From Minisyncoccota bacterium (lineage in GTDB: Bacteria; Patescibacteriota; Minisyncoccia; Phycocordibacterales; UBA5272), in the NCBI GenBank assembly GCA_041651055.1, contig JBAZJW010000001.1:20737-84736 (forward strand): DNA of 64,000 nt, written 5' to 3'. Of this stretch, positions 18,663 through 63,890 are shown piece after piece (the stretch's first letter is position 1; each line of letters opens with the position of its first letter). Below the pieces are notes generated by a model. The model did no database searches and had not been told where the DNA came from. It was given only the letters and a program-made list of their open reading frames with translations. The position numbers and the translations under genes are program-made.

Positions 18663-20069
18663 GGTCTTTAATATCTCCTGAAATATCGCTGGATTCCCTG
18701 ACCCTTTTGATTTCTTCATACACTGTCCGACGAAGAACATAAACATGCTTTCTTTTCCGGATTTGTAATCTGCTACCTGTGTAGGATTTTCTTCGATAAC
18801 TTCCGCGACAATTATTTTTAATGCTTCAGGATCATTCTTTTGTATGAGACCGAGCGTGTCTGCTACATCACGAGGTGAAGCAGTCCTGTCTTCAAGTAAT
18901 TTCGGAAGAATGTCTTTTGCTCCACGTGATGAAAGTTCTCCTGCCTGTACCATTTCGATGAGGGTGCGAAAAGTTGAAGCTGTAGGCAGGTTTTCTACTG
19001 CAATCTCTTTGCCTTCTTTTTTGAGAAGTCCAAGGACATCAGAGATGAGATAGTTCGAAGTAAGCTGTGCGTAGGCATTGTCTTTGCCTTCTACAACACT
19101 GTCGAAAAAGTGCGCGAGGAGTGGTGAGTCCACGATGATTTCAATCGTGTCGTCTTTGATACCGAAGTCACTTGCATATCGTGCACGTTTTACCTTTGGC
19201 ATTTCTGGCAGTGATGCTTTTATTTCGTCAGTATTAAATAATTTACTCAAATATAATTTTGGTAAATCTGGATCAGGGAAGTATCGGTAGTCATGAGCAT
19301 TTTCTTTCTTTCGCTGTGAGAAGGTTTCTAATTTTCCTTCATCCCATCCGCGAGTTTCTTGGACAATAGAGCCACCTTCTTCGATGAGGGCAATGTGACG
19401 AGCTACTTCGTAATTGATAGCACCGAATACAGAGGCGAATGAGTTGATATTCTTCACTTCTACTTTTGTGCCGAACTTATTCGGATCACGCGATACAGAA
19501 ATATTCGCTTCGATACGCATTTGACCCATTTCCATATTTGCTTCTGATGCGCCGACGTAGCGAAGTATGCGCTGGAGCTCACGTGCGAAAGCCACCGCTT
19601 GTTCTGCAGAATGAATCACTGGTTCGGTCACGAGTTCCATCAAAGGGACACCAGCGCGATTGTAGTCCACGAGTGTCATGCTATTTTCATGGGACGATTT
19701 CGCAGTATCTTCTTCAAGGTGAATGCGAGTGAGTTCTACGTCGTTAATAACACCACCTGAGACGATAGGGAGGAGGTATTGGGAGAGTTGATATCCTTTT
19801 GGAATGTCTGGATAGAAATAATTCTTTCGATCGAATTCTGTGAAGTCTGCAATGGTGGCACCGATAGCGCAACCGACGGTCACTACTTTTTTGATGGCTT
19901 CTTTGTTCGGAACAGGGAGTGTGCCAGGGTGCGCCATACACACTTCGCAGATGTTTTGATTTGGCCGCTTTTCTGTTGGGTCGTTTTTACAACCACACCA
20001 CATTTTGGAATTGGTGTGTAATTCGGCGTGAATTTCGAGGCCTATAGTTGTGATATATGGGTCAGACAT
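18639..20069 (-). CDS. gatB: Asp-tRNA(Asn)/Glu-tRNA(Gln) amidotransferase subunit B
   Basis: 476 aa, IGLEIHAELHTNSKMWCGC N-terminus. Confidence 0.93.
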   Translation of the reverse strand: MSDPYITTIGLEIHAELHTNSKMWCGCKNDPTEKRPNQNICEVCMAHPGTLPVPNKEAIKKVVTVGCAIGATIADFTEFDRKNYFYPDIPKGYQLSQYLLPIVSGGVINDVELTRIHLEEDTAKSSHENSMTLVDYNRAGVPLMELVTEPVIHSAEQAVAFARELQRILRYVGASEANMEMGQMRIEANISVSRDPNKFGTKVEVKNINSFASVFGAINYEVARHIALIEEGGSIVQETRGWDEGKLETFSQRKKENAHDYRYFPDPDLPKLYLSKLFNTDEIKASLPEMPKVKRARYASDFGIKDDTIEIIVDSPLLAHFFDSVVEGKDNAYAQLTSNYLISDVLGLLKKEGKEIAVENLPTASTFRTLIEMVQAGELSSRGAKDILPKLLEDRTASPRDVADTLGLIQKNDPEALKIIVAEVIEENPTQVADYKSGKESMFMFFVGQCMKKSKGSGNPAIFQEILKTQLGALNS

Positions 20070-22162: not shown

Positions 22163-22252
22163 AATCATTAGTCGACACTAGTCATTCGTTGTTCGTTAGG
22201 GCGTTAGTCGTTAGGTAATAACGAATAACGAATAACGAAGAACGCCCTAACG
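22163..22252. repeat. CGTTAGG / AACGAAT heptamer arrays in inverted orientation (no internal terminator)
   Basis: cgttagggcgttagtcgttagg taataacgaataacgaataacgaagaacgccctaacg. Confidence 0.7.
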
Positions 22253-22257
22253 AATTT

Positions 22258-26531: not shown

Positions 26532-28016
26532 TTATCTCGTCAAAAGTTTATCCAAAATACCTCCATGCTCGCGTATGTGTTGGCGAATCTTTCTTTTGGC
26601 AAGTGTGGTGCGTGCCATATCTATCCATTTTCTTTTTGGTGAAGCGCTTTCTTTTACATCAATTTCCACAACGTCACGACTTTGCAGTACGGTGTCGAGT
26701 GGTACGAGCTTTCCATTTACTTTTGCCCCTGCAGTATGGTCACCTATGTCTGAGTGCACAGTGTATGCGAAATCAATGGTCGTCGACCCTTCTGGAAGAT
26801 CTATGACGTCACCTTTTGGTGTTAAAATAAATACACGTTTTTCAAAAAAGTCTGTTTTTAAATTGCTCATGAACTCTTTATGATGTTCGACATCCTTTTG
26901 CCATTCGAGTAATTCTTTGGTCCAGCCAATTTTCTTTTTTATTTCTTGTTCACTACCATTCTTTCCAACTTCTTTGTAATTCAAATGAGAGGCGATACCA
27001 TATTCAGCTTCTTTGTGCATGTCTTTCGTGCGTATCTGTATTTCAAGTGTATTCCCGTCACCAGAAAATATCGTAGTGTGAAGTGAACGGTAGCCGTTTG
27101 GTTTCGGTACAGCAATGTAATCCTTGAATCGTCCAGGAACAGGTCTATAGAGACCGTGAATCACGCCGAGCGCCTGATAACAATCTCCGACAGTGGGCAC
27201 AATGATACGCAGTGCGACGACATCGTGAATTTTTGAGCTATCCATCTTATATCGTTTCAATTTTTGCCACAATGAATAGAGATGCTTCACGCGGTGATCG
27301 ATGCGTTCTATTTCTACATCAAAGGTGGTGAGCTCTTCCTCAAGCGTTGCTACAACTTTCTCTAGTTGCTCGTCAGACACAGGGCGAATGCCTTCGAAAA
27401 GTTCAAGAGTCTTTTTGTATTCCTCTGGATAGACGTAAGGGAAGGCGGCGTCTTCGAGTTGTGCTTTTAAGCGTCCCATTCCGAGTCTATCGGCGAGACG
27501 AGCGTGTATTTCAAGGGTTTCTAAGGCGATTCGCTTTTGCTTTTCTGGAGAAACATATTCTAGTGTCTGGATATTGTGAAGTCTGTCACAGAGTTTAATA
27601 ACCACGACACGGATATCATCTGCCATAGCAACGAAGAATTTTCGAAGTGATTCGACGTGACGTTCTGCTCCTGAATAGCGAAGTTTTCCGAGCTTGGTTA
27701 CACCTTCGACAAGTTTGGTGATATGTTCGCCGAATTCTGCGGTCATTTCTTCATGGGTTATCGAAGTGTCTTCGAGGACATCATGCATGATACCGGCGGC
27801 GATTGTTTCGGCGTCCATTTTGAGTGTTGCTAGGTTGAAGCCCGTTGCGAAGACGTGATTGTAGTAGGGTTCACCGGACTTTCGAAGTTGACCTTCGTGT
27901 GCTTTTTCTGCAAAAACACATGCCCGCAAAATGAGATTCTTATCTTCCTCTTTCATGTCCGGAAGAAGTGCAAAAATGCGGCTTGGGTTTGTGTCTGCAA
28001 AGTTCTGTGATTCCAT
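26532..28016 (-). CDS. rel: Bifunctional (p)ppGpp synthetase/hydrolase, RelA/SpoT family (short form)
   Basis: HD domain HDVLEDT and RelA_SpoT synthetase core ...YRSLHTTI. Confidence 0.85.
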   Translation of the reverse strand: MESQNFADTNPSRIFALLPDMKEEDKNLILRACVFAEKAHEGQLRKSGEPYYNHVFATGFNLATLKMDAETIAAGIMHDVLEDTSITHEEMTAEFGEHITKLVEGVTKLGKLRYSGAERHVESLRKFFVAMADDIRVVVIKLCDRLHNIQTLEYVSPEKQKRIALETLEIHARLADRLGMGRLKAQLEDAAFPYVYPEEYKKTLELFEGIRPVSDEQLEKVVATLEEELTTFDVEIERIDHRVKHLYSLWQKLKRYKMDSSKIHDVVALRIIVPTVGDCYQALGVIHGLYRPVPGRFKDYIAVPKPNGYRSLHTTIFSGDGNTLEIQIRTKDMHKEAEYGIASHLNYKEVGKNGSEQEIKKKIGWTKELLEWQKDVEHHKEFMSNLKTDFFEKRVFILTPKGDVIDLPEGSTTIDFAYTVHSDIGDHTAGAKVNGKLVPLDTVLQSRDVVEIDVKESASPKRKWIDMARTTLAKRKIRQHIREHGGILDKLLTR

Positions 28017-28984: not shown

Positions 28985-29008
28985 AACTAATTACCAATAA
29001 CTAATTAC
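28985..29008. repeat. TAATTAG-type heptamer array (aactaattaccaataactaattac) just past the topA stop
   Basis: Near-identical to the 62840-62870 inverted-repeat arm. Confidence 0.6.
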
Positions 29009-31215
29009 TTCTTTTGATCCATTTTATGAGGATTATGCATTGGGCAGAGTTTATCGCTGCATCGTTCTGGAATTGTTTTGGTTCCCTCCATCATGAGTTC
29101 GCCGCATTCTGTTCCGTCTTCTTTTCTGTAGGTACAGCGATTGCCTGTTGGTCGTGTCTTGATAATGTGTTTACAGTCAGGATAATTTGAACATGAAAAG
29201 AAAATTCCAAAGCGACCTTTTCGTTCTTCCATGTAGCCGTCTTTACACTTATTACAGCTCACACCCGTTGAGTTTGCTTTTCGCATCTCTTCATCTTGTT
29301 CGATATATTTACACTTCGGATAGTTTGAACAGGCGATGAACTTGCCATACTTTCCTTCACGTTCCATCAGATCTCCTTTTTCACACTTTGGACATTTCTT
29401 ATCGAGTTTCTTTGGTCCTTCCATGACTTCACCATCCATCTTTCTCGCTCCCATACAATCTGGATAACGAATACATGAATAAAACTTTCCATTTTTGGCA
29501 AGCTTGATTACCATGTTCGCATCACACAGTGGACATTGCATTCCTTCTGGAGCGTCTCCCATGTTGGTTGCTTTCTCGAGACTTTCCTTTGACTTCACGT
29601 CTTTCAAAAATGGACCATAAAAGTCAGTGAGCGTTTTTAGGTATGTCGCTTTTCCATCCGCAATGGCGTCTAACTTATCTTCCATCTCAGCCGTGAAGGT
29701 ATCACTAATGTATGCTGCGAGATTATCTTCAAGGAACGAAATAACTACTTCACCGGTATCTGTCGGGTGCAATGCTTTGTTTACTTTTTCTACATAGCCA
29801 CGAGCTTCAATGGTTGAAAGAATAGATGCGTATGTCGAAGGTCGTCCGATGCCACGCTTTTCGAGTTCCTTCACGAGACCTGCTTCGGTGTAGCGGTTTG
29901 GTGGTTCGGTTGCTTTTTCGATGGCTTGCAAGGTTTTTAATATCAAATCATCGCCAACTTTTAATTCAGGCAAAAGGACGTCATCGCCGCGCGCATCTTG
30001 ATCTACTGTTAACCATCCAGGGAAAACAACAATAGAACCATTTACAGAAAAGTTCGGAATACTCTTCGAAGGAATATTCGCGATGACTTTACTACGCTTC
30101 AACTTCGCATCTTTCATTTGACTTGCGACGGTGCGTTCCCAGATGAGTGAATAGAGACGCTTTTCATCGTCTGTAGTACCTGCGCTTCGCGATGTGGCAT
30201 GCGTCGGACGGATAGCTTCATGGGCTTCCTGTGCGTTTTTTGATTTTGTTTTGTACTGACGCACCTCGAGCAATTCTTTTCCGTAATTTTTTTCGATGAC
30301 AGAACTTATTTCGGCAACAGCGACAGCAGAAATAGTCGTACTATCGGTACGCATGTAGGTGATGAGACCTTTTTCGTATAACTTTTGAGCGATACCCATC
30401 GTGCGAGATGGTGAATAGCCGAGACGAGATGACGCGGCTTGTTGAAGGGTCGATGTCGTAAATGGTGCTTTTGGTGAACGTGATACTTCGGTGCTTTCGA
30501 CAGACACAACTTCCCAGTTTGAATTCTTTCCTTCTTTTACAATTCTCTCTGCTTCCGCTTTTTCTTTTGGTTGTACTTCACATTCGAGAATGAGCGTGTA
30601 GGTTTTGCTTTCCTTCATGCGACCAACGGTTGTGTATTCACCCGCGATGACGTAGTAGGTGACAGGAATAAACGCGCGGATTTCACGTTCGCGTTCCATG
30701 ATGATGCGAAGTGCGGGGGACTGTACACGGCCAGCCGAAAGTCCGTAGCGTACTTTTTTCCAAATGATGCCAGAGAGATCATAGCCTACGAGACGGTCGA
30801 GCACGCGGCGCGCTTCTTGCGCTTCTTTCAAGTTCATGTCGATTTCTCGAGGGTGAAGCAACGCTTCTTTGATAGCTACTTCTGTGATTTCGTGGAAGGC
30901 GACACGCTTTGCACCTTTCAAATCGCACGCCTCTTGTATGTGCCACGCGATAGCCTCTCCTTCTCGGTCGGGGTCGGTTGCGAGAATGACTTCATTAGAT
31001 CGCTTGGCGAGAGCCTTGATATCCGCGATAACTTTTTCCTTCCCAGCACTCACTTCGTAATGAGGAATGAATCCGCCTTCGATATCCACGGCCTTCTTGT
31101 TACTCTTCGGCAGGTCTCTCACATGACCAATAGACGCACGCACTTCGTATGCACCGTCTAGATATTTTGCAATTGTTTTTGCCTTCGAAGGGCTTTCTAC
31201 GATGAGGAGTTTCAT
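29005..31215 (-). CDS. topA: DNA topoisomerase I with C-terminal C4 zinc ribbons
   Basis: Toprim plus topoisomerase IA core, 4 zinc-ribbon repeats. Confidence 0.95.
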   Translation of the reverse strand: MKLLIVESPSKAKTIAKYLDGAYEVRASIGHVRDLPKSNKKAVDIEGGFIPHYEVSAGKEKVIADIKALAKRSNEVILATDPDREGEAIAWHIQEACDLKGAKRVAFHEITEVAIKEALLHPREIDMNLKEAQEARRVLDRLVGYDLSGIIWKKVRYGLSAGRVQSPALRIIMEREREIRAFIPVTYYVIAGEYTTVGRMKESKTYTLILECEVQPKEKAEAERIVKEGKNSNWEVVSVESTEVSRSPKAPFTTSTLQQAASSRLGYSPSRTMGIAQKLYEKGLITYMRTDSTTISAVAVAEISSVIEKNYGKELLEVRQYKTKSKNAQEAHEAIRPTHATSRSAGTTDDEKRLYSLIWERTVASQMKDAKLKRSKVIANIPSKSIPNFSVNGSIVVFPGWLTVDQDARGDDVLLPELKVGDDLILKTLQAIEKATEPPNRYTEAGLVKELEKRGIGRPSTYASILSTIEARGYVEKVNKALHPTDTGEVVISFLEDNLAAYISDTFTAEMEDKLDAIADGKATYLKTLTDFYGPFLKDVKSKESLEKATNMGDAPEGMQCPLCDANMVIKLAKNGKFYSCIRYPDCMGARKMDGEVMEGPKKLDKKCPKCEKGDLMEREGKYGKFIACSNYPKCKYIEQDEEMRKANSTGVSCNKCKDGYMEERKGRFGIFFSCSNYPDCKHIIKTRPTGNRCTYRKEDGTECGELMMEGTKTIPERCSDKLCPMHNPHKMDQKK

Positions 31216-31345
31216 GGGTAGTAATTGGTCATTAGTTATTAGTAATTAGTTACGGAAATATGTTCGCATTCCATGTATAGTATCACATCACTGGGTGGAG
31301 GTTCATGTATTTACTAATGACTAATACCTATAAACTAATGACTAC
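31216..31345. repeat. TAATTAG-type heptamer arrays in inverted orientation spanning the topA-dprA intergenic region
   Basis: gggtagtaattggtcattagttattagtaattagtt ... aactaatgactaatacctataaactaatgactaccc. Confidence 0.65.
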
Positions 31346-31346
31346 C

Positions 31347-32231
31347 CTACACTATTCTTCGCACTTCGCCAAATGTTTCTTGTATGACACCTTTCATTTC
31401 GAGCGATGAAAGAGTGATGAGGAATGCAGTCGGAGTGAGCTCGCTTTTGATAAGTAGTAAATCTTTTTCGGTGGGTTCGATGAGAATATCGAGAATCTTT
31501 TTTTCTTGAGGTGAATAATCGTACGCTACTTCTTTTGTTTCTTTTTTTGAAAGATGAAGGAGGGCGTAGAGGTCCTCGGCGTTTGTGATACTGTACGCGC
31601 CGTCGCGGATGAGGAGATTGGTACCGGCGGATGTTGGGGAGAATATTTCTCCAGGGACGGCTCCGATATCGCGTCCGAGTTCGAGGCCTTGTCTTGAGGT
31701 GATGAGGGCACCAGACTTGTCAGACGCTTCGATAACAAGTATGGCGTCAGAAAGCGCAGCGACGATACGATTGCGTGAGGGGAATGTCCACTGTGCTGCG
31801 CCAGTTTCAGGTGGTAATTCTGAAATGAGTACACCGCCTGCTGTTACGATGTCAGAAGCGAGATGGACATGGGCACGAGGGTACAAAACTTTGTGATCGA
31901 GTCCACTTCCGGGGATGGCGATTGTTTGTATATTATTTTTGAGAGCGGACATGTGGGCTATACCATCGATACCGAGAGCGAGACCAGAAAGAATGACAAC
32001 TTCTTCGCCTGCCAGGTCTCGCAGTAATTTCTCGACAACATTTTTTCCATAGCTTGTATGTTTGCGCGAGCCGATGATAGAGAGAATGCGTGGTGTGGCT
32101 CTGCCGTACTCGTCGATGGTGATGTTGGGAAGGTCTCCTTCTATATAGAGTGTGTCGGGAATATCGTGAAGTTCGAGGAGGCGGGAGAGGAGGGGATGAT
32201 TTTGAAATTCATTTTGAGAAATGATATGCAT
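31347..32231 (-). CDS. dprA: DNA processing protein DprA/Smf
   Basis: Rossmann-like DprA core IGSRKHTSYG...LSGLALGIDG. Confidence 0.88.
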   Translation of the reverse strand: MHIISQNEFQNHPLLSRLLELHDIPDTLYIEGDLPNITIDEYGRATPRILSIIGSRKHTSYGKNVVEKLLRDLAGEEVVILSGLALGIDGIAHMSALKNNIQTIAIPGSGLDHKVLYPRAHVHLASDIVTAGGVLISELPPETGAAQWTFPSRNRIVAALSDAILVIEASDKSGALITSRQGLELGRDIGAVPGEIFSPTSAGTNLLIRDGAYSITNAEDLYALLHLSKKETKEVAYDYSPQEKKILDILIEPTEKDLLLIKSELTPTAFLITLSSLEMKGVIQETFGEVRRIV

Positions 32232-32258: not shown

Positions 32259-32368
32259 AATTATTCACAACGATGTGTAAACCAAACGATGTATCCGCCT
32301 ACTGGCGGATCATCTCACTCTCCCGCCGTCGCGGTCCGAGAGTTGGTTTACACATCGTTGTGAATAAT
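32259..32368. repeat. MITE-like element: 26-bp perfect inverted repeat (ttattcacaacgatgtgtaaaccaa) around a 57-nt core with inner hairpin atccgcc-tact-ggcggat
   Basis: Perfect long IR in the 5' region of dprA. Confidence 0.6.
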
Positions 32369-36592: not shown

Positions 36593-37196
36593 TATGTCCA
36601 CACTAAAAAAATATTTTCCACACGTATTACTTTTTGCATACATCGTAGAGTTCATTGTTTTAGCTATTCATCCATACGATAGAGCTGTATGGCTAACAGA
36701 AAATCTCACAGTACTTCCCATTGTTCTTGTCCTCGTTATTCTCTATTACAAGAATGTACGTTTTTCAATGGTGTCCTATGCGCTTATGAGTGTGCTTATT
36801 TTTATGCACACATGGGGAGGACATTACACATTCGCACTCGTACCTTTTGATTGGTTTAATAATTTCTTTGGCTTTGAAAGAAATATGTATGATCGTGTCG
36901 CGCATGCGACTGTCGGATTTTATGCATATCCAATGATAGAGGCTCTCATTAGATATAAAGTGGTCAATAAAAAGTGGTTTGCATACTTGGCGGCCTTTAG
37001 TATTATTCCTGCACTTGCGGCTTTTTATGAAATGTTTGAATGGAGATATGCTATCGGAGGCGATCCAGAAGCTGGCCTTGCTGTACTCGGATCTCAAGGG
37101 GACATATGGGACGCACAGAAGGATATGCTCATGGATACACTTGGTGGATTATTTGCAACAGTGCTCTTTTTTGTGCTCAATAGAAATAAGAAGTAA
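36593..37196 (+). CDS. Polytopic membrane protein, hypothetical
   Basis: Start MSTLKKYF; 5-6 TM helices. Confidence 0.55.
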
Positions 37197-37227: not shown

Positions 37228-37309
37228 GCCCGGGTGATGGAATGGTAGACATAGAGGACTTAAAATCCTCAGCGCGTTTGCGCGTGCGGGTTCGAGTCCC
37301 GCCCTGGGC
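37228..37309 (+). tRNA. tRNA-Leu(TAA), no encoded CCA; integration target
   Basis: Acceptor gcccggg/cctgggc, anticodon loop ctTAAaa, hairpin variable arm, T-loop ttcgagt. Confidence 0.85.
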
Positions 37310-38867
37310 ACAAGACAGGACAATCTGGTACGAAAGTATCAGATTTTCCTTTTTTAGCAGTACTTTTACGTGGTTCGAAATTATTTTGACTATCTATTTT
37401 CTGTTGAACCCTTTGAGCGAGTACTTCAACTGGCCTCTTTAATAATGACAACACTTTTTCATCTTTAAGAGTGATGTTCGAAAAAATATGAGATAAAAGA
37501 GTTCTTCTTTCTTCGGGTGTTCTTTTCTTATAGATTTCCTCCGCTCGAAAAGCAAGATCCAAAATGTTTAACCATATTTCAAAATACCTAGTTTCTATAT
37601 TTTTAATTTTTGATATTTGCTCCTGAATACCTTGCTGCTCTTTGTTAATTTCGGTCTGTCTCTTTTCCCATGTGTCGGTACTAATCTTCTGGTCTAATCT
37701 ATCGTTATACAGTATGTCTAGACGGCTCTGTAATTGAATGTAGCGAGCGTTTAGTGTCTTGAGGGTGTTTTCTTTGTATTCTATTTCTTGAATATGGTTT
37801 GCCTTAATTTTCTCCTTTATACGTTCGGCTTCTTCAGGTTTTATATTCTTAAAGAAATTAAAAACTCCTAAAAGTTGCTCTTCAATTTTTGATTCTGGGG
37901 TATATGGTTTCTGTGTACACTCGTTATAGTGATTACAATGATAGTAGACAATACCCTTCTGTATTTCTGCGGTAATCGTACCATTGCACTCGCCACACTT
38001 CATCATTTTCTTAAATTGAAAATTATGTTTACTGTATGAAGGAGTAAGTTTTCCTCTTTTCACTGATTGTGCTTTATCAAATAGTTCTTTTGTAATTATC
38101 GGCTCATGTTTTGCTTCTGGGTAAAGTACATCATTCCAGACCATCGCACCATAATAAAAAGGTTCATTGAGAATCCTCTCTATTCTACTTTTTGCTAACT
38201 TTCTACCTGCACGAGTTCTGAAGCCCTCTTTATATAATTGCTGACGTACTGCTTCCATTGAGTGATTACTACTAGAATACAACTCAAATGCTTTCTTTAT
38301 AAAAGGAGCAACCGATGTATCGATGACATGTGTCTTGTGGCCTTTATCTCCAACTGTTTGGTAACCAAGAGGGGATCTGGTTGGTAACCATCCTTGAGCA
38401 AGTTTCTCTGCTTGCCCCTTGCGTACCTCTTCAGAAAGATTTGAAATATATTTCTTGGCTAGGACAATTTCAATATCCCAACGAAACTTTTCATCAGATT
38501 TAGCGTTTTTATGAATAATAAGGTTCTGTTTAACAAAGTGTATTTTTCTTTGATCATCTTCATCGATCCAATCGTTTGCAACTACTGCTTCTTTCAAATT
38601 ACGCGTAAGGCGGTCTACTTTTTCTACTATAAGGTTTTTAACCTTGTTTTTATCTATATATTCCATCATTTCAGCAAAAACTTTTCTCTGTTTTGTTCCG
38701 CTTGCGCTTTCAGCGACAGAGAATACTTTGTTAACTGTAAAACCCTTGCGATTCGCATATTCTTTTAATAACTTCTCTTGTGAAGGTAGTGAGTACCCGG
38801 TCTCTTCTTGTTCCTTTGTTGAAACTCTACAATAGAGAACTGAGTTATTAGTATCAATGTTTTTCAT
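37269..38867 (-). CDS. Large serine recombinase (integrase); C-terminus overlaps the tRNA-Leu(TAA) 3' end
   Basis: Resolvase-type N-terminal domain with catalytic [10 protein letters not shown], recombinase and zinc-ribbon regions, coiled-coil tail. Confidence 0.85.
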
Positions 38868-41996: not shown

Positions 41997-44189
41997 TTAA
42001 AAAGAAGAACCTTTTTCAACCTCTACAACTGCTGTGGTAATAGGAACAACTTTAACATTAAGAGCAACACTCGCATCATACTTTGTCTTATCAAACTCTC
42101 TCTTTGCAAGAAGAGGTCTTTCGCTCTTCACTGCCTTACCGTGCGCAACAAACTCTAAAAACTTAAGATTAGGAATTGCTTTAATGTGTTCGGAACTGTA
42201 TACACTACCTAAATACTCTAAACTAGTTTTATCTACCAAACTATGTGTGAAGTAAGTGTTACATTGAGACAAAACTGTCTTGCTAACTAGTGCTGTACGC
42301 TGAGACACAATGAGTAATCCAACGCCATATTTACGACCCTGTAAAGCAATCTGCCCGATTCTTCCAACGACCCACTGTGTTTCAGAGTCAAAACCAGAAC
42401 TGTATACTTCGGGAATTATTGTGTGTGCCTCTTCCAGAACAATCATTATCTGTTTTGCTTTGCGATTATTCCGTGCCCAGTTCATTATCGCTGATAGATA
42501 GAGTTCTGTTGTCCTTAATGTTGCTTTGGTGTTAGTTATTTCAGCAAGTTCAAATATACCAAGTAGGTCGTCTTTACTAGTTAGAAAATCTTCAATCTGA
42601 TTAGTTACTTGTGGTTTTATTCCATCTATAAATGTTTTCAATTCTCTCTTCTCATTTGGTGCACCGTAAGTGCCTATTTCTACTGCAAATAGATGTGTTT
42701 CTAAATCTGAACCTTGAGTAATAGATAAACCGATGGACACTGGATCTAGGTCTGCGAGACGCTTCTTATATTCCCCAGTGAAATCAACGCAAAATACTTT
42801 TCTGCCACGAGCAACTGCTTCGCGAATAATGTCTAGCACAAGTTCTGTTTTTCCTGTTCCTGTTACACCCAATACTGCTGTATGGTACTCAATTAAATCA
42901 TCTAACACGACAGGAATACCAAAGGAAGTAGAGGGGACTTTACCTATCATAAACTCATTCTCCTTGAGGTTTTGTGTATGAACTTCCGTTTCTGATGTGA
43001 GGAATAGAGGTTGATTCATTTCTGGAAGCCAAGAATACTTTTCAAAACCTCTATTTGGATCATAGCAACCCAATTGAGCAGCAGAAACTATATGCACTCC
43101 ATAAGGATTTTGATGAAAACTTTCTTCGTTAGTACTTGCATCTAGTATTTGATAATAAACCTTCTTTCCACGAATACAAGCAAACACGACAACTCCTTCC
43201 TCCAACTTAATACCACTTACGGATTGAAACTTTATATTAGAGATTGAAGACCCTTCAACTGTTATTCCCACAACTTTACTGTTTCTTTCCTCTCCACTGA
43301 GTATGACGCCTAATGTTTCTGCAAGACCTTCTTCGTTAATACTGTAAACTTCTCCTGTTTTAGTAGATTCATATTTCTTTCCGTCAGTTATTTCACAACA
43401 TAAACCTGTTCCTATCACTTGTTCATTTTGTATTTGTGAAAATAAAGGCAAAACGTAAGTTATCTTCCCACCAGAAAGATGCGCAATATGAACATATTCA
43501 GAAGTCCAATTATCTATATTTTCTTCAAGAGTAATTCTAACCAAGTTCGGAGCGTCAATTCGTAAAACAGAGCCAGTTAATTCTAGTACAGATTTTGTTG
43601 TCTTTGTTCCGTTAAGATAAAGGATTACTTGAATAATATGTTCCACTGGACGTGCCACAACCATAAAAGTCCAAAACCCAAGAATTGTAACCATCCATTC
43701 TGGTTCACTTTGGTAAAATCCAAGAGCACTTATAAGGACTGCAGGTGTAAAAAGTATCTCTCCTTTGCCAAAAACACCGCTCAGGCGATAAGTTACTTTC
43801 CCAAGTTGGGTATTTTGTTGAAAAGCAGATACCAGAGCACATGTAGCAACAAAAATTGCTATTACTATTGTAATGGTATTAGCAGTTTGGAGGCCGAAAC
43901 TAAAATCGGACACATTAGTAAAATCTAAAGGGGCGAGAAGAAGTACCAAAGAAATAGCAGTTGTCAAAGAGTCACGTGGAGGTAAAAAGAATGGTGCTGA
44001 AACTAAATGAAGTAACCAGTAGGCCATAGCCGCCAAAAGCCAAACACTCGCACCAGATCCAGTTGGAAAGAAACTTCCTGTTGCAAAATAATAAATTACC
44101 CACGCTATTAAAACATTTATTGCTAAAACTGTGATTCTCCATGTTTGGCTCAAAGGTTCTATGGATTTTATTTCTTGTTCTTTTGCCAT
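41997..44189 (-). CDS. Membrane-anchored HerA/FtsK-like (DUF87-type) P-loop ATPase
   Basis: About 200-aa N-terminal polytopic domain, then Walker A GVTGTGKTEL and Walker B IVLEEAH. Confidence 0.7.
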   Translation of the reverse strand: MAKEQEIKSIEPLSQTWRITVLAINVLIAWVIYYFATGSFFPTGSGASVWLLAAMAYWLLHLVSAPFFLPPRDSLTTAISLVLLLAPLDFTNVSDFSFGLQTANTITIVIAIFVATCALVSAFQQNTQLGKVTYRLSGVFGKGEILFTPAVLISALGFYQSEPEWMVTILGFWTFMVVARPVEHIIQVILYLNGTKTTKSVLELTGSVLRIDAPNLVRITLEENIDNWTSEYVHIAHLSGGKITYVLPLFSQIQNEQVIGTGLCCEITDGKKYESTKTGEVYSINEEGLAETLGVILSGEERNSKVVGITVEGSSISNIKFQSVSGIKLEEGVVVFACIRGKKVYYQILDASTNEESFHQNPYGVHIVSAAQLGCYDPNRGFEKYSWLPEMNQPLFLTSETEVHTQNLKENEFMIGKVPSTSFGIPVVLDDLIEYHTAVLGVTGTGKTELVLDIIREAVARGRKVFCVDFTGEYKKRLADLDPVSIGLSITQGSDLETHLFAVEIGTYGAPNEKRELKTFIDGIKPQVTNQIEDFLTSKDDLLGIFELAEITNTKATLRTTELYLSAIMNWARNNRKAKQIMIVLEEAHTIIPEVYSSGFDSETQWVVGRIGQIALQGRKYGVGLLIVSQRTALVSKTVLSQCNTYFTHSLVDKTSLEYLGSVYSSEHIKAIPNLKFLEFVAHGKAVKSERPLLAKREFDKTKYDASVALNVKVVPITTAVVEVEKGSSF

Positions 44190-44641: not shown

Positions 44642-47032
44642 ATGGCTGTTAAAAAATCGCAATTGTATAGTTCTCTTTGGAAGAGTTGTGACGAACTCCG
44701 TGGTGGTATGGATGCCTCACAGTATAAGGATTATGTTCTTGTTCTCCTCTTCATAAAATACATCTCTGACAGATATGTAGGTGTTCCTTTCCCTCCTATT
44801 GTTGTGCCTAAAGGTGCAAGTTTCAAGGATATGGTTGCTCTTAAGGGCTCAACAACCATTGGAGATGACATCAACAAAAACATCATACAAAAAATAGAAG
44901 AAGCAAACCCTACACTGGGTAAAATTGCTGTTGATTTCAATGATCCTGTAAAACTTGGTAGTGGAAAAGATATGGTTGATAGATTAACCAAACTTATTGC
45001 TATTTTTGAAAACCAAAATCTTGATTTTAGTACAAACCGTGCCGAGGGGGACGATATTCTCGGAGATGCTTATGAATACCTTATGCGACACTTTGCATCA
45101 GAGAGTGGTAAGAGTAAAGGTCAGTTCTATACTCCTGCTGAGGTTAGTAAGATAATCGCAAAAGTAATAGGTATTTCAAATACTAAAGTACTTACTCCGA
45201 CTGTATACGATCCTGCGTGTGGATCTGGTTCTCTTCTTCTAAAAATTAGAGATGAGACAGATAAAAATGTTACCTTACGTGGCCAGGAAATGGATAATGC
45301 AACTGCCGCACTTGCTCGTATGAATATGATACTCCATAACAACCCGACATCTATCATTGAAAGAGAGAACACTCTTTCAACACCACTCTTCAAAGAAAAT
45401 AACCAACTGATGACATTTGATTTTGTTGTTGCTAACCCGCCGTTCTCTACAAAATCGTGGACTAATGGCGTTAAGGTTGGAGATGATGATACTTATGGAA
45501 GATTCACTGGATTTGGCACACCTCCGGAGAAGAATGGCGACTATGCTTTTCTTCTTCACATAGTTCGCTCACTTAAAGAGAAAGGTAAAGGTGCTGTTAT
45601 TCTCCCTCACGGTGTACTTTTTCGTGGTGGTAGTGAGGCGTCTATTCGTACTAACTTAATTCGTCGTGGATATATTAAGGGAGTTATCGGGCTACCTGTA
45701 AACCTCTTTTACGGTACAGGTATTCCTGCGTGTATTATTGTGATAGATAAAGAAAACGCAGACACTCGTAAAGGTGTCTTTATGGTTGACGCAAGTAAAG
45801 GATTTATAAAAGACGGCAACAAAAACCGACTCCGTAACCAAGACCTTCATAAAGTAGTAGATATATTCAATAAGCAACTAGAGATAGAAAAGTATTCTCG
45901 TATGGTAAGTATGGTGGAGATTGAAAAGAATGAATACAACCTCAATATCCCTCGCTATATAGATAGTCAGGAGGCAGAGGATATGCAGGATATAGAGGCA
46001 CATCTACAAGGTGGTATACCAACTAAAGATATAGAAGACCTAGGTAATTACTGGGGTGTTTACCCAACCCTCAAATCCTCCCTATTCACCGACAGTAAAA
46101 GAAAAGGATATAGCAACCTAAAAATTAAACAAGAGGAAATTAAGAATACTATTTTTTTACACCCAGAGTTCACTTCTTATTCCAAAACAATGGAAGCAAC
46201 TTTTTCTACTTGGAAAATAAAGAATAGTTCTATCTTAAAAAAGATAACTAAAGGAGTGAAACCAAAGGAAATAATTCCGACAATATCAGAAGATCTACTC
46301 TCTGCTTTTAGTAATACCAATCTTATAGATAAGTATGATATTTATGAACACCTTATGGTTTATTGGTCAGAGACAATGCAAGACGATATGTATCTTATTG
46401 CAGACGATGGATGGAAAGTAACTCTCCAAATAATAGATGCAAAGAAAGGCACAACAGAGTGCGACCTTGTTCCAAAGCATCTTATTATTAACCGTTACTT
46501 TGCAAAAGAAAAGCAAACTCTTGATGATTTACAAACTAAACTAGACACATCAACACGAGAAATAGAAGAAGTAGTTGAAGAGTACAGTGATGACAGTGAA
46601 AAAGGGTATTTTACTGATTTTGAAAAAGTAAGTAAGACAACAGTAACTTCAAGAGTTAAGCAGATGAAGAACAGTGTTCAAGATAAAGAAGAACTTATGG
46701 TAATGGAAAAGTACCTTTCACTTGTTGAAGAAGAGTCAAGAGCAAAAAAAGAAATTAAAGATGTGGAGATTTCTCTTGAATTGCAAGTTGTCGCAAAGTA
46801 TAAAACTCTAACAGAGGAAGAAATCAAGGTTCTAGTAGTAGATGACAAATGGTTAGCAACGCTTGAACAAGCAATTCACAGTGAAATGGATCGTATTAGT
46901 CAGCGCCTTACAGGGCGTATTAAGGAACTCGCAGAGAGATATGCAACACCTCTCCCCCTTCTTGTTACAGACACGGAGGTACTTACCAGTAAGGTAGATG
47001 GACATCTTAAAACAATGGGATTTGTATGGTAG
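44642..47032 (+). CDS. hsdM: Type I restriction-modification N6-adenine DNA methyltransferase subunit (long form with coiled-coil C-terminal extension)
   Basis: DPACGSGSLL (motif I) and NPPF (motif IV); 796 aa. Confidence 0.9.
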   Translation: MAVKKSQLYSSLWKSCDELRGGMDASQYKDYVLVLLFIKYISDRYVGVPFPPIVVPKGASFKDMVALKGSTTIGDDINKNIIQKIEEANPTLGKIAVDFNDPVKLGSGKDMVDRLTKLIAIFENQNLDFSTNRAEGDDILGDAYEYLMRHFASESGKSKGQFYTPAEVSKIIAKVIGISNTKVLTPTVYDPACGSGSLLLKIRDETDKNVTLRGQEMDNATAALARMNMILHNNPTSIIERENTLSTPLFKENNQLMTFDFVVANPPFSTKSWTNGVKVGDDDTYGRFTGFGTPPEKNGDYAFLLHIVRSLKEKGKGAVILPHGVLFRGGSEASIRTNLIRRGYIKGVIGLPVNLFYGTGIPACIIVIDKENADTRKGVFMVDASKGFIKDGNKNRLRNQDLHKVVDIFNKQLEIEKYSRMVSMVEIEKNEYNLNIPRYIDSQEAEDMQDIEAHLQGGIPTKDIEDLGNYWGVYPTLKSSLFTDSKRKGYSNLKIKQEEIKNTIFLHPEFTSYSKTMEATFSTWKIKNSSILKKITKGVKPKEIIPTISEDLLSAFSNTNLIDKYDIYEHLMVYWSETMQDDMYLIADDGWKVTLQIIDAKKGTTECDLVPKHLIINRYFAKEKQTLDDLQTKLDTSTREIEEVVEEYSDDSEKGYFTDFEKVSKTTVTSRVKQMKNSVQDKEELMVMEKYLSLVEEESRAKKEIKDVEISLELQVVAKYKTLTEEEIKVLVVDDKWLATLEQAIHSEMDRISQRLTGRIKELAERYATPLPLLVTDTEVLTSKVDGHLKTMGFVW

Positions 47033-48321
47033 AAATAACTATTAAAAAAGGATATAAGCAAACTGAAATTGGGGTAATTCCGGAAGATTGGGATATTGTC
47101 TCATTTAAAAAAATTGCTGATAAGAATAAAAAATGGAGTATAACAGGGGGCCCTTTTGGTTCAAACTTAAAGAAATCAGATTACACCAATGACGGTGTTC
47201 AAATTATACAATTACAAAACATAGGAGATGGTAGATTTATTGACGATTACCAAATTTTTACTTCAAAAGATAAAGCCGATGAACTTTTGAGTTGCAACAT
47301 TTATCCAAATGAGATAATTCTTTCAAAGATGGGAGACCCTGTTGCTAGGGCTTGTTTTGTTCCTGAAAAAAACGAAAGATATCTTATGGCGTCAGACGGT
47401 ATCAGATTAGTTGTAAATGAAAATGAGTTTTCTAAAAAATTTATTCACGATTATATTAATTCTGCCTATTTTAGAAACAGAGCATTTGAGGTAAGTATGG
47501 GCTCAACTAGGTTGAGAATAGGGTTACCGAAATTAAAAGGACTTAGTGTGGTTAAGCCACCAAAAGAAGAACAGGATCTTATTGCCACAATCCTCTCCGA
47601 TACAGATGCGCTCATTAACCACTTGGACAAACTAATCACAAAAAAGAAAGCAATTAAACAAGGAACAATACAACAACTTCTTACTGGTAAAAAACGCCTC
47701 CCTGGATTTAGTGGTGAGTGGGAAGAAAATAAATTGGTGAAGATAGCAGATTTTTTTAAAGGTAGAGGTCTTTCTAAAAGCAAAATTGAAAATAACGGCC
47801 AATATTCTTGTATTTTGTATGGCGAGTTATTTACAACATACGCTCGGGTAATAGATGAAGTAAAAAGTAAAACAAACTTCACTGAGGGATTAACCTCAAC
47901 AGAAGGAGATATTCTTATGCCTGGATCAACGACTACTGTTGGGATTGATCTAGCCGTAGCGTCCGTTTTAAATAAAAATGATGTACTGATTGGTGGTGAT
48001 GTAATTGTAATTAGGAAGAAAAAGCAAGAGTTCTACAACCCTAATTTTCTTGCAAATTATTTAACTCACGTCTCAAAATATAAAATAGCCGGAATTACAC
48101 AGGGTATAACAATAATTCATTTGCACGGTAGTAGGTTGCAGGAAATAATGGTAAAGATACCAAAAGACGTGAGCGAACAAACTGCCATTGCTACAATTCT
48201 CTCTGATATGGACAAAGAAATTGAACTCATAGAACATAAACGAGATAAATATATAATGCTAAAAAATGGTATGATGCAACAATTACTAACAGGCGCTATT
48301 CGTATATATGGAAACAAATAA
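47026..48321 (+). CDS. hsdS: Type I restriction-modification specificity subunit
   Basis: Two target-recognition-domain halves with conserved spacer; overlaps hsdM and hsdR. Confidence 0.8.
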   Translation: MVEITIKKGYKQTEIGVIPEDWDIVSFKKIADKNKKWSITGGPFGSNLKKSDYTNDGVQIIQLQNIGDGRFIDDYQIFTSKDKADELLSCNIYPNEIILSKMGDPVARACFVPEKNERYLMASDGIRLVVNENEFSKKFIHDYINSAYFRNRAFEVSMGSTRLRIGLPKLKGLSVVKPPKEEQDLIATILSDTDALINHLDKLITKKKAIKQGTIQQLLTGKKRLPGFSGEWEENKLVKIADFFKGRGLSKSKIENNGQYSCILYGELFTTYARVIDEVKSKTNFTEGLTSTEGDILMPGSTTTVGIDLAVASVLNKNDVLIGGDVIVIRKKKQEFYNPNFLANYLTHVSKYKIAGITQGITIIHLHGSRLQEIMVKIPKDVSEQTAIATILSDMDKEIELIEHKRDKYIMLKNGMMQQLLTGAIRIYGNK

Positions 48322-61091: not shown

Positions 61092-62426
61092 ATGAATATG
61101 TTTTCTTTTTTCACACCTAAACAAGAACGGGTTTATTTGGATAACGCAGGGGCGACACCTCTTTCTGCTAGATCACAAACAGCGCTCACAGAATCTCTTT
61201 CTTTATATGGTAATCCATCAGGGATTCATAAAGAAGGGACGCAAGCTGGACTGCTGCTCGATAAGGCACGCGTACTCTGTGCGAATGTGCTCAATGCTCA
61301 TGCGTATGAGATTTATTTTGTAGGAACTGGAACAGAATCCTGCAATCTCGCAGTTTTGGGTACGTATGAGGGGTATAAGAAACAAGAAGTAAGAAGTATG
61401 GAGCAAGAAACTCCTGACGAAGAACGAAGAACGAAGAACGAGTTGCCTCATGTAATTGTTTCTACCATTGAACATCCAGCGGTACTGGAGCCAATTAGAA
61501 AACTCGAGAGAGAAAAAAAGATTCGTGTTACGTACCTTCCTGTTTATGAAAATGGCATTGTAAAAGTAAAGGATATACGTGATGTATTATGTGAAGAAAC
61601 TATTTTGGTTTCTGTTATGTATGCGAATAATGAAATAGGAACTATACAGCCAGTAAAAGAAATTGGTCGCGCCCTTGAAGAATGGAAAAAGGAACAGAAT
61701 CGCACGCATACCGCGTATCCATATTTTCATATCGATGCATGTCAGGCGGCGAATTATTGTAATCTCGATGTGGTACGGTTGCGCGCTCATTTGATGACGG
61801 TAAATAGTAGCAAGGTCTACGGTCCGAAAGGCGTAGCACTTTTATATAAACGTGAAGGAGTGAAGATTGAAGCACTTACGCACGGTGGTGGGCAAGAACG
61901 AGCCCTACGGAGTGGCACAGAGTCTGCGCCACTTGCGTACGCATTCGGTGTCGCGCTCAAAGAATCTCATGATATGAAAGAAGTGGAGTCTGTTCGACTA
62001 CGCATGCTTCGCGATGCATGTAAAAAAGAATTACAGCAAGCACTTCCAGATATTACATTTTATGGAGCGTGGGATGAGGGAAGACTTCAGACAACAGACG
62101 ACAGACAACAGAAGAGTCCAACAACACACGAAGAACGAAGAACAAAGAACGAGTTCAGACTACCAAATAACATTAATTGCCGGGTGCCGGGAATATCGTC
62201 GGAGGAAATGATTCTCAGGTTGGATGCGAAAGGGTTCGCAGTCTCACACAAGAGCGCATGTGCTTCTTCTGAAACAGACGGTAGTTATGTGGTGCAAGCA
62301 CTCGGTGCGTCAGAAGAAGAGTCTCTCGAGAATGTGCGCATTACACTTGGCCGTGCTACTTCAATGCAAGACCTGCACAGATTGGTGGAAGCAATGAAAG
62401 AGATTGTAATTAAATACAGGAAGTAA
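61092..62426 (+). CDS. Cysteine desulfurase (IscS/NifS family, class V aminotransferase) with two in-frame heptamer-repeat insertions
   Basis: PLP-fold motifs (…SSKVYGPKGVALLY, HKSACASS); extra EERRTKNE-containing loops. Confidence 0.85.
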   Translation: MNMFSFFTPKQERVYLDNAGATPLSARSQTALTESLSLYGNPSGIHKEGTQAGLLLDKARVLCANVLNAHAYEIYFVGTGTESCNLAVLGTYEGYKKQEVRSMEQETPDEERRTKNELPHVIVSTIEHPAVLEPIRKLEREKKIRVTYLPVYENGIVKVKDIRDVLCEETILVSVMYANNEIGTIQPVKEIGRALEEWKKEQNRTHTAYPYFHIDACQAANYCNLDVVRLRAHLMTVNSSKVYGPKGVALLYKREGVKIEALTHGGGQERALRSGTESAPLAYAFGVALKESHDMKEVESVRLRMLRDACKKELQQALPDITFYGAWDEGRLQTTDDRQQKSPTTHEERRTKNEFRLPNNINCRVPGISSEEMILRLDAKGFAVSHKSACASSETDGSYVVQALGASEEESLENVRITLGRATSMQDLHRLVEAMKEIVIKYRK

Positions 62427-62870
62427 TTAGTTATTAGTAATTGGTAATTAGTTGAAATACAAACAAATTAAAGTGGTATACTTTTCTTATGAAGACATTT
62501 AAAGATTTAGATGTTTGGCGGAGGTCTGTTTCTTTTGCAACTGATATTTATAGCGTAACTAAAACTTTTCCTAAAGAAGAAACGTATGGTTTAGTTTCTC
62601 AGTTACGAAGAGCTGGAGTTTCGATTGCTTCAAATATTGCAGAAGATAGCAAGAAAGGGAAGAAAGAATTTTCTCATTTTATTAAAATCTCACAAGGTTC
62701 TGGTGCAGAAATAGAAACTCAATTAATAATTGCTAAAAATTTAAATTATATAAAAGAGAATGATTTTGATAGACTAATTACTGAATTAGAATCAATTATG
62801 AGAATGCTTACAAATCTCTATAAATCTGTAGCTGAGGTTAACTAATTACCAATTACTAATAACTAATTAC
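62423..62870. repeat. Cassette bounded by perfect 31-bp inverted repeats GTAATTAGTTATTAGTAATTGGTAATTAGTT (62423-62453 and 62840-62870) enclosing a four-helix-bundle gene
   Basis: Exact reverse-complement arms built of TAATTAG heptamers; arms overlap the iscS and 4HB stop codons. Confidence 0.8.
62489..62845 (+). CDS. Four-helix-bundle protein of the 23S rRNA intervening-sequence / Avd-like family
   Basis: FKDLDVWRRS...FPKEE.YGLVSQLRRAGVSIASNIAE family signature. Confidence 0.75.
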   Translation: MKTFKDLDVWRRSVSFATDIYSVTKTFPKEETYGLVSQLRRAGVSIASNIAEDSKKGKKEFSHFIKISQGSGAEIETQLIIAKNLNYIKENDFDRLITELESIMRMLTNLYKSVAEVN

Positions 62871-62879
62871 TTTTAAAAT

Positions 62880-63440
62880 ATGTATACACCAAAAGATTTT
62901 TCATCGTTACTCGGGCTTGCAGGTATGAGTGATGCCATGCTTACCAATCACTTCACCTTGTATCAAGGATACGTGACCAATACCAACAAACTCGCAGACC
63001 TTTTGAAAGACAAAGAAGCGGGGACACCAGAGTACGCAGAACTTCACCGTCGCTTTGGATGGGAATGGAATGGTATGCGACTTCATGAGCTTTACTTTGG
63101 AAACCTCGTGAAAGGAGGAGTGAATTTAAGTGATAGAATTTTGAAACAAAAAATTGAAAGCACATGGGGGTCTGTCGAAAACTGGCAAAAAGAATTCGTT
63201 GGCATGGCCGCTATGCGTGGTATCGGATGGGTTATTCTTTCTCATGATAAGCGTGAAGGAAAACTTTTCAATGTATGGGTGAACGAACACGATGCCGGAC
63301 ATCTAGCAGGTGCGACACTGCTTCTTGTGATGGATGTGTTTGAACATGCGTACATGACGGATTACGGAATAAAGCGCGCGGATTATATCAATGCGTTTAT
63401 GTCAGCAATCGATTGGCACGCAGTGGAGGAAAGACTATAA
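62880..63440 (+). CDS. Fe/Mn superoxide dismutase
   Basis: N-terminal helical hairpin with His ligands, C-terminal D..EHAY motif. Confidence 0.85.
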   Translation: MYTPKDFSSLLGLAGMSDAMLTNHFTLYQGYVTNTNKLADLLKDKEAGTPEYAELHRRFGWEWNGMRLHELYFGNLVKGGVNLSDRILKQKIESTWGSVENWQKEFVGMAAMRGIGWVILSHDKREGKLFNVWVNEHDAGHLAGATLLLVMDVFEHAYMTDYGIKRADYINAFMSAIDWHAVEERL

Positions 63441-63476
63441 AATAGTTAGGGGTTAACAGTTAGGAGTTAGGAGTTG
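63441..63476. repeat. GTTAGG-type heptamer array (aatagttaggggttaacagttaggagttaggagtt)
   Basis: Same family as the 17781 / 18511 / 26421 arrays. Confidence 0.6.
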
Positions 63477-63548
63477 ATGCAAAATAAAAGATAGTAATCG
63501 TGACCAAAAAATACTATCACATACGAGGCTTAATCATATACTTACATT

Positions 63549-63890
63549 ATGTTTCAATTCATATATAATCCAATGTTTGCATGGCCGTTAGTGGTGACGG
63601 CAACTATTGTTGAGACTATTTGGTTTGTCGTACTAAAGAAATCTGGAGGGTTAGAAGTTTGGCCGTATAACTTACTAAGTATAATTATTGTGCTGATAGA
63701 TTTGCCTCTCCTATCGATTGCCATGAAGACTATCCCATCTGGATCTGTTTACGCTTTTTGGACAGGAGTTTCTGCTATTTGTATAACCGCTCTTGGAATT
63801 TACTTTTTCCATGAGCCTGTAACTTTTTGGAGATTATTTTTTATTGGTGTGGCTGTGCTTGGTGTGGTCGGTTTACAACTTAACTCATAA
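63549..63890 (+). CDS. Small multidrug resistance (SMR/EmrE/SugE) family transporter
   Basis: About 110 aa, four TM helices, conserved Glu in TM1. Confidence 0.75.
   Translation: MFQFIYNPMFAWPLVVTATIVETIWFVVLKKSGGLEVWPYNLLSIIIVLIDLPLLSIAMKTIPSGSVYAFWTGVSAICITALGIYFFHEPVTFWRLFFIGVAVLGVVGLQLNS

Follow-up and report, generated by a model that had tools for sequence, protein, structure and literature searches.

Within a 64,000-nucleotide stretch of contig JBAZJW010000001.1 from a Minisyncoccota bacterium (hereafter the window), a gene encoding a 118-residue four-helix-bundle (4HB) protein of family PF05635 lies between a cysteine desulfurase-like gene (iscS) and a superoxide dismutase gene (sod), and is enclosed by two perfectly complementary arrays of tandem heptamers. 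The same bracket of inverted heptamer arrays is a family-wide property of PF05635 genes, and this broader pattern, which ties a protein family to inverted arrays across phyla, is more interesting than the single locus. The layout, a long terminal stem with a PF05635 open reading frame (ORF) in its loop, is that of the ORF-bearing intervening sequences (IVSs) of 23S rRNA, as the initial annotation recognized, here placed between protein-coding genes. We put at about even strength the reading that this is an IVS-type 4HB cassette in a protein-coding operon, the arms of which pair in read-through RNA as a substrate of RNase III.

A repeat search placed the arms at 62421-62453 and 62840-62872, an inverted repeat of 33 nt with 100% complementarity and 386 nt between the arms. 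The inverted repeat initially annotated thereby stands, with arms of 33 rather than 31 nt since AAG/CTT adds 2 nt of pairing. Both arms are period-7 tandem arrays (62422-62452 and 62841-62871, 4.4 copies each). On the plus strand the left arm is a C-free, G-rich array that reads GTAATTA, GTTATTA, GTAATTG, GTAATTA and a final GTT, and the right arm, its exact reverse complement, is G-free and contains C. As first described, the arms overlap two stop codons, that of the iscS-like gene (TAA, 62424-62426) within the left arm and that of the 4HB gene (TAA, 62843-62845) within the right arm; the gap between the end of the right arm and the sod ATG is 7 nt. The 29-nt core of the arms has only two sites in the window and gave no match in 100 dinucleotide-preserving shuffles. 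By inverted-repeat score across the gene, the 4HB ORF ranks first of the 61 window ORFs (66; median 16), the next highest scores being those of an unannotated ORF at 17892-18485 and then of topA. The perfect inverted repeat that encloses the 4HB gene is real and not a product of chance. Its host genes, both on the plus strand and assigned by profile matches, encode a class-V aminotransferase/cysteine desulfurase (iscS/nifS-like, 444 aa, 61092-62426) upstream and an Fe/Mn superoxide dismutase (186 aa, 62880-63440) downstream.

The enclosed ORF (62489-62845, plus strand) bears out the 4HB identity first given to it: it matches the hidden Markov models PF05635 (23S_rRNA_IVP; E = 2.4e-37, scoring 127.8 bits where the cut-off is 33.8) and TIGR02436 (four helix bundle protein; 123.2 bits where it is 24), and is the sole PF05635 gene in the window. 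An identical protein is on record for a Candidatus Paceibacterota metagenome-assembled genome. An AlphaFold model of the protein (pLDDT 92.7) consists of four long helices and matches XCC0516 of Xanthomonas (PDB 2GSC) with a TM-score of 0.93, 37-39% identity and E = 1.5e-20; BT_0352 (PDB 2RLD) is the next structural match. Family and fold are common to all three proteins, as are the residues of a conserved R-x3-S-x3-N-x2-E motif, of which R41, S45, N49 and E52 are invariant in the homologue alignment. The solved entries 2GSC and 2RLD comprise five chains each and, by analogy with these relatives, the window protein is most likely a ring of five subunits that binds nucleic acid. Purifying selection acts on the ORF (dN/dS 0.06-0.12 in ortholog pairs with unsaturated dS), and the protein is functional. 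Its composition is odd, with a GC content of 29.4% that is the lowest among window ORFs (42.3 ± 5.9). Profile-library scans yielded no nuclease or transposase family match to the protein, and PADLOC no defence-system match for the cassette; a defence-system reading was dropped on the latter result.

The initial annotation also considered that the gene might be an orphan Avd-like accessory gene of a diversity-generating retroelement (DGR). Avd (PDB 4DWL, 8UB7) is a homologous four-helix bundle, a pentamer that binds reverse transcriptase and RNA, and the window protein resembles it in structure (TM ~0.8) and weakly matches both bAvd (28.7 bits) and PHROG 3206 ('Avd protein of DGR'). The Avd models nevertheless stay under their cut-offs (NF033474, 18.6 against 80; PF22296, 28.7 against 40), identity to Avd is 8-10% as opposed to 37-39% to XCC0516, and the same gene lies between iscS and sod in all relatives. 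A reverse transcriptase is absent from the 10 kb flanking the gene on each side and from the ~53 kb of the window that carry annotation, and there is no template/variable repeat pair, the segment 61500-64000 containing no direct repeat longer than 19 nt. Given the sub-cut-off scores and the lack of both partners, we ruled out a DGR Avd, an assignment we consider exceedingly improbable.

PF05635 genes and inverted heptamer arrays across phyla

A profile built from 21 homologues retrieved 80 loci from species genomes of many phyla, among them Bacteroidota, Acidobacteriota, Clostridia, Proteobacteria, Planctomycetota, Nitrospirota, Gemmatimonadota and several groups of the candidate phyla radiation (CPR); these loci are those that best match a query rich in AT, and their start codons were called crudely. 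At each locus, the 150 nt upstream of the gene were aligned with the reverse complement of the 150 nt downstream. Inverted tandem arrays appear in nearly every locus, with a unit that differs from locus to locus: CAAGTAC x4 in L050 (L numbers are our locus labels), a GGCGGCG type in L074, TTTCTGG/TTTTCGG x10 in L060, GGGAGTA in L070 and a GGGAATC type in L020. The median inverted-repeat score is 34.5 for 78 homologues versus 16.5 for 176 other ORFs of the same loci, and 68% of the 4HB genes exceed the 95th percentile of these controls (Mann-Whitney p = 1.6e-27). The GC content of the 4HB gene is below that of the rest of its locus in 79/79 cases, by a median of 8 points, and all of 40 homologous loci tested fall outside rRNA genes.

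The geometry of the arms was summarized over the 55 loci above the control 95th percentile (denominators 51-55). The best period is 7 in 40/51 arms and 8 in about 10, and the median array length is 4.3-4.6 units. The notion that arm length reflects five subunits times 7 nt was tried against these lengths, whose broad spread made it uninformative. The upstream arm is G-rich and C-poor on the sense strand of the gene in 50/54 loci. The upstream neighbour is co-oriented with the 4HB gene in 51/54 loci, and both neighbours are in 40/55. The left arm starts a median of 3 nt past the upstream stop codon (10 nt or less in 34/51 loci), and the median distance from the end of the right arm to the next start codon is 13.5 nt. 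The IVS layout, a heptamer-array stem with a PF05635 ORF in its loop, is the normal genomic setting of PF05635, a large family, and is found mostly between the cistrons of ordinary operons.

Several parts of this pattern have been described separately. The Coxiella 23S IVS is 428 nt long and has a 28-bp terminal stem, 5' GACAGAT heptamers and an S23p/PF05635 ORF (PMC4990558). PF05635 genes are also carried by rRNA insertions of the CPR (PMC11270868), and one located between cmr3 and cmr2 is an earlier case within an operon (PMC3936711). GGGAATC repeats of Xanthomonas, of which ~70 convergent pairs were counted in that genus, and heptamer repeats of Nostoc were reported without explanation (PMC4692102). 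For TAACTGA heptamers that closely precede start codons in Beggiatoaceae, cyanobacteria and Bacteroidetes, a translational role was proposed (PMC4679880). PF05635 or four-helix-bundle genes go unmentioned in PMC4692102 and PMC4679880. Beyond the heptamers of the Coxiella IVS, our literature search, which left most subscription journals and the family descriptions of databases outside its range, found no link between PF05635 genes and flanking heptamer inverted repeats. The repeats of Xanthomonas, Beggiatoaceae, Bacteroidetes and cyanobacteria (in the last also the short tandemly repeated repetitive sequences, STRR) resemble the arms described here in being intergenic tandem 7-mers, often near start or stop codons, and GGGAATC-type arms like the Xanthomonas repeat flank the 4HB gene in L020. 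We propose that the described bacterial heptamer repeats and PF05635 genes are linked.

In the ~30 years since their discovery, no agreed origin, mechanism of mobility or protein function has emerged for the rRNA IVSs and their S23p/4HB ORFs, and the intergenic heptamer repeats of several phyla have been separately unexplained; the present data tie the two together. The association supplies a simple sequence rule for finding such cassettes, and it accounts for 'four helix bundle protein' genes that break up otherwise conserved operons in genome annotation. It further predicts that operon mRNAs have ends that depend on RNase III, that the protein binds the arms of its own cassette, and that gene and repeat families occur together genome by genome.

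History of the cassette at the iscS-sod junction

Close homologues of the window protein (69-87% identity; L002-L007 and L170-L178, 14 distinct loci) are all encoded between iscS and sod, and complementary heptamer arms bracket the gene in all 14. No second insertion site was found among them, each one looked up being iscS-sod. A sod-anchored metagenome search supplied 80 further loci. In the more distant cassettes at the same site (~60% protein identity), the arms are built from other heptamers that are mirrored in both arms. The arms of L099 (AGTTAATAGTTAATCGTTAATAGTT) are perfectly mirrored, GTTAATA and GTAGCTA being among the units of distant cassettes; L100 and L102 carry GTAGCTA, mirrored as TAGCTAC, and L090 carries TTATTTG units. 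L170 and L176 are built on TTATTCG/TAATTCG units, with the mirror images CGAATAA/CGAATTA in the opposite arm. A left arm pairs far better with the right arms of its own group than with those of another, and the two arms therefore change together in evolution. When the window is compared with L002, the 4HB gene is 85% identical at the nucleotide level, a value somewhat inflated by its low GC content at third codon positions, and the right arm 39/39, as against 67% for iscS and 73% for sod. The excess in the 4HB gene and right arm over both host genes is a sign either of nucleotide-level constraint or of a cassette exchanged more recently.

The cassette has the same orientation in all orthologous loci recovered, an observation that bears on whether the arms bound an invertible segment (an inverton) in which flipping of an internal promoter switches sod on and off. 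Perfect 33-bp inverted repeats around a promoter-like box and a gene are what such a switch would look like. Frequent inversion would, however, randomise both the G-rich upstream arm (50/54) and the co-orientation with the upstream neighbour (51/54), and no invertase gene lies nearby; the sole recombinase gene (37269-38867) belongs to an integrated element 23 kb away. With orientation and polarity both fixed, the inverton was ruled out, and we regard it as very improbable.

In distant relatives, whose iscS is 36-42% identical, only 4-18 nt separate iscS from sod, and the ancestral arrangement was thus a tight operon junction. Within the clade, by comparison, the site is variously filled, decayed, truncated, reduced to a lone arm, occupied by an unrelated ORF or emptied. 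L089 retains both arms of a decayed cassette with the last 40 codons only, L098 holds a truncated cassette, and L105 a lone right arm. Emptied sites have spacers of 18-117 nt, and those of L097, L103 and L094, though 'empty', still contain the TATACT box of the cassette together with arm remnants and are best read as deletions. In a neighbour-joining tree of sod, which is based on 186 residues and weakly resolved, the site states are interspersed, and decayed and lone-arm loci are sister to filled ones. Most simply, the cassette would have been inserted once, long ago, and then lost repeatedly. A hairpin predating the insertion was ruled out as its target: neither the outgroup nor the emptied sites have inverted arrays, and the arms consequently arrived with the cassette.

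No sign of recent transposition was seen among the orthologous loci. The initial annotation's mobile IVS-like insertion accordingly holds in part, in that the cassette was gained in this lineage and lost in some relatives, but it is mobile only on long time scales. The single site in close homologues, taken with the low dN/dS, marks an old resident that has been vertically inherited here. The iscS-sod cassette is an old, conserved and dispensable resident of its junction.

Two further loci of the clade have unrelated ORFs without heptamer arms at this position, a 162-aa ORF on the plus strand in L096 (1779-2488) and a 123-aa ORF on the minus strand in L101 (1957-2500), and the iscS-sod junction is on this account a recurrent insertion point.

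Transcription across the cassette and the role of the arms

A GTGGTATACT box on the plus strand at 62473-62482, extended -10-like and ending 6 nt before the ATG, is a candidate leaderless-type promoter of the 4HB gene. All orthologous cassettes retain a TATACT-type box, at 8-12 nt upstream of the ATG. Within the window, a box of this type ends 6-9 nt ahead of the ATG in 17 of 61 ORFs (motif background ~2 per kb per strand), which is a signature of leaderless transcription and suggests that leaderless mRNAs are common in this Paceibacterota genome. No TATACT-type box of its own was found for sod, and no terminator-like site between iscS and sod. Two classes of transcript are therefore expected from the sequence: read-through from iscS would carry both arms, whereas transcripts from the cassette promoter would carry the right arm only and continue into sod. 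The ORFs with such a box include 15499-16074, 18639-20069, 26532-28016, 31347-32231, 36594-37196, 52829-53329, 61092-62426 (the iscS-like gene itself) and 63549-63890.

When the read-through RNA was folded, a long-range stem that closes the whole cassette (62414-62881, plus strand) was predicted in both the minimum free energy (MFE) and the centroid structures, with 37 contiguous pairs and 5 more beyond a 6-nt internal loop; the MFE is -119.5 kcal/mol (z = -6.2 against 100 shuffles). An Rfam scan of the window returned tRNAs only, and no Rfam family matched the arms in 40 homologous loci. The cassette of L050, from an acidobacterium, shows the fit to its host operon in an extreme form. Its first heptamer includes the upstream stop codon, and the eight units run straight into GGAGGAGG and a GTG start, so that nothing but a Shine-Dalgarno sequence stands between left arm and start codon; the right arm abuts the next ATG. 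There is no space for a promoter in this cassette, whose expression must rely on the operon transcript, with both arms co-transcribed with the host genes.

These features can be assembled into a putative mechanism. The unit consists of a G-rich heptamer array, a short leader that holds the start signals of the gene, the PF05635 gene and a complementary C-rich array, and was inserted into the ancestrally tight iscS-sod junction exactly between upstream stop and downstream start. In a transcript reading through from iscS, the arms would pair to a perfect duplex of at least 33 bp which, by analogy with rRNA IVSs, RNase III would be expected to cut. The iscS, 4HB and sod RNAs would thereby come apart and the start region of sod, 7 nt away from the stem, would be exposed, and such processing could make the insertion tolerable to the operon. 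Transcripts from the leaderless-type promoter of the cassette, having the right arm only, would run unprocessed into sod.

Two kinds of known system resemble this arrangement. In phage T7 early mRNA and in the stems that flank 16S and 23S rRNA in rRNA operons, intercistronic RNase III sites separate the products of one transcript. Such sites are duplexes of at least ~20 bp within one polycistronic transcript. Like them, the predicted duplex is long, and it would lie in a polycistronic transcript at a place where cleavage would separate cistrons; unlike those local hairpins or host spacer stems, the arms here are tandem repeats that travel with an inserted gene. The rRNA IVSs of Coxiella burnetii, Leptospira and others provide the closer parallel, with a terminal stem of ~28-33 bp, a PF05635 ORF in the loop and a total length of ~430-450 nt, and the Coxiella IVS is cut by RNase III at the first repeat, in vitro and by rapid amplification of cDNA ends (PMC4990558). 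The Coxiella ORF, however, is decaying and probably untranslated, whereas the window ORF is under purifying selection and preceded by a promoter-like box, and the window cassette sits between protein-coding genes rather than in an rRNA helix. An IVS-like layout outside an rRNA gene is the reason why we speak of an IVS-type cassette in an operon and not of an IVS.

Arrays of the same heptamer family also occur in the window without an enclosed gene. The initial annotation likened the arms to repeats that flank topA, and the likeness is well founded: arrays at 28985-29008, 31219-31252 and 31307-31342 give 9 matches versus 0.04 expected. The genes dprA (31347-32231) and topA (29005-31215) are both on the minus strand, and the arrays of their junction belong to a TAATTAG/TTATTAG family. 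The junction (31216-31346) contains an ORF-less counterpart of the cassette (31219-31342, minus strand) which, on the gene strand, consists of a G-type array behind the dprA stop, then a spacer that contains a GTGATACTAT box, and last a C-type array that directly adjoins the topA ATG. The third array (28985-29008, minus strand) extends over the topA stop and can pair with the array upstream of topA across 24 nt at 92% complementarity. In other phyla, 12-mers derived from the arms recur elsewhere in the same 6-kb locus in 13/55 cases, compared with 8/275 for foreign arms.

Several of these observations weigh against processing by RNase III. Such processing accounts for neither the 7-nt periodicity nor the G-rich-upstream polarity (50/54). 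Arm mismatches compatible with G:U pairing number 46 on the sense and 43 on the antisense strand, with no sense-strand excess and therefore no signal of selection specifically on RNA pairing. The promoter box of the 4HB gene sits inside the loop of the stem, so a share of transcripts would lack the left arm. Since heptamer arrays also occur at junctions without a 4HB gene, in the window and in outgroup loci, the signal may in part reflect something that cistron junctions of these genomes have in general. Within its annotated part, the window showed no RNase III gene.

Periodicity, fixed polarity and the missing G:U bias keep alive a role of the arms at the DNA level, which we consider unlikely relative to an RNase III-processed cassette. 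On this account the arms act as hairpin or cruciform ends in recombination or transposition, and the 4HB gene is the 'master copy' of a dispersed repeat, in the manner of RAYT (REP-associated tyrosine transposase) genes and REP (repetitive extragenic palindromic) sequences or of an autonomous element and its MITEs (miniature transposable elements with inverted repeats). The ORF-less arrays at the dprA-topA junction and after topA, the recurrence of arm-derived 12-mers, the ORF-less inverted pairs of other loci (L081 and L087, described below) and the GC deficit of the 4HB gene in 79/79 loci all agree with it, and the concerted change of the arms is what copying one arm off the other would produce. 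The protein, by contrast, is a small helical bundle without a nuclease or transposase family match, no target-site duplication is seen at the arm ends, and all close homologues share one site. Arm sequence varies between loci, unlike transposon ends, and upstream co-orientation together with the stop-to-start fit points to constraint at the level of the transcript. Measured against transposons with terminal inverted repeats, MITEs and REPtrons, the cassette has neither transposase, target-site duplication nor identical ends, and shares with them only the gene-less dispersed repeat.

A REPtron is a RAYT transposase gene between inverted REP sequences, with REPINs dispersed elsewhere in the genome, and RAYT is an HUH transposase. 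The resemblance is that of a gene bracketed by an inverted short repeat which is also found gene-less in other intergenic regions; the differences are that the 4HB protein has no known catalytic motif and that window-type arms are tandem arrays differing between loci. A more sweeping proposal, to which we attach a low probability, is that PF05635 genes and inverted arrays constitute a widespread, unrecognised class of operon-embedded elements of which the 23S IVS is just the most familiar special case, with the heptamer repeats of cyanobacteria, Bacteroidota, Xanthomonas, Beggiatoaceae and CPR bacteria as ORF-less derivatives or targets and an Avd-like pentamer that binds, maintains or spreads the arrays as RAYTs do REPINs.

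The remaining alternative dispenses with cleavage. The stem could regulate or protect, by stabilising the mRNA against exonucleases or occluding the sod start, or the arrays could be generic intercistronic punctuation, supplying stop codons in every frame and start regions free of structure, to which complementarity is secondary. The right arm, stopping 7 nt short of the sod ATG, is well placed for such effects; a translational role has been proposed for start-codon heptamers (PMC4679880), heptamer runs cover the iscS stop in relatives that lack the cassette, and upstream arms contain stop codons in all three frames in 24 loci in the sense orientation versus 11 in the antisense. Neither version accounts for the PF05635-specific enrichment of inverted pairing or for the co-variation of the arms, and a perfect 33-bp duplex far exceeds what start occlusion needs and is a classic RNase III substrate. 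Three-frame stop codons were also rejected as the reason for the arrays, the enrichment being modest and many arms (for example those of L050 and L074) having no stop codon. We judge this family of explanations doubtful, and processing of the cassette by RNase III the better account.

Several arrays were encountered that do not enclose a 4HB gene. In other phyla, ORF-less inverted pairs of the cassette's own heptamer family occur near it in L081 (4690-4780) and L087 (1550-1625), and L019 (3440-3590) has a one-sided array of ~20 CCAACAA units of this family. In distant relatives without the 4HB gene, C-type heptamer runs (ACTAAAA..., ACTTTCG...) are found at the iscS stop (L106, L127, L133, L153 and L156) or in the short spacer before sod (L136 and L152), so single arrays at cistron junctions exist independently of the cassette.

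Other repeats and elements of the window

A second heptamer family (GTTAGGN/CGTTAGG/AATAACG) occupies 17766-17883, 18511-18643 and 22192-22254. Inverted arrays of this family bracket terminator-like hairpins on either side of the unannotated 197-aa ORF at 17892-18485, and those at 22192-22254 form a tight inverted pair. Directly 3' of the sod stop lies a G-type array (AGTTAGG x4, 63444-63477), followed by a TATACT box and a gene for a transporter of the small multidrug resistance (SMR) family (63549-63890); no array complementary to it was found downstream within the window. The iscS-like ORF itself contains in-frame heptamer arrays at 61376-61441 and 62088-62152 (TAAGAAG, GAAGAAC and CAGACAA units) that encode EERRTKNE-type segments and, in an alignment with five orthologues, correspond to two indel-rich, weakly conserved loops of the protein.

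Two inverted repeats of the window are not heptameric: a perfect 32-nt palindrome over the 3' end of tRNA-Leu(tag) (55120-55185), and a perfect 26-nt inverted repeat with a 57-nt spacer upstream of dprA (32260-32368). Beside tRNA-Leu(taa), the segment 37228-52091 is a probable integrated element with genes for a large serine recombinase (37269-38867), a helix-turn-helix protein and a DUF87/TrwB-like ATPase (41997-44189). It also holds a complete type I restriction-modification system (44642-52091), and the GC content of several of its ORFs ranks near the bottom for the window.

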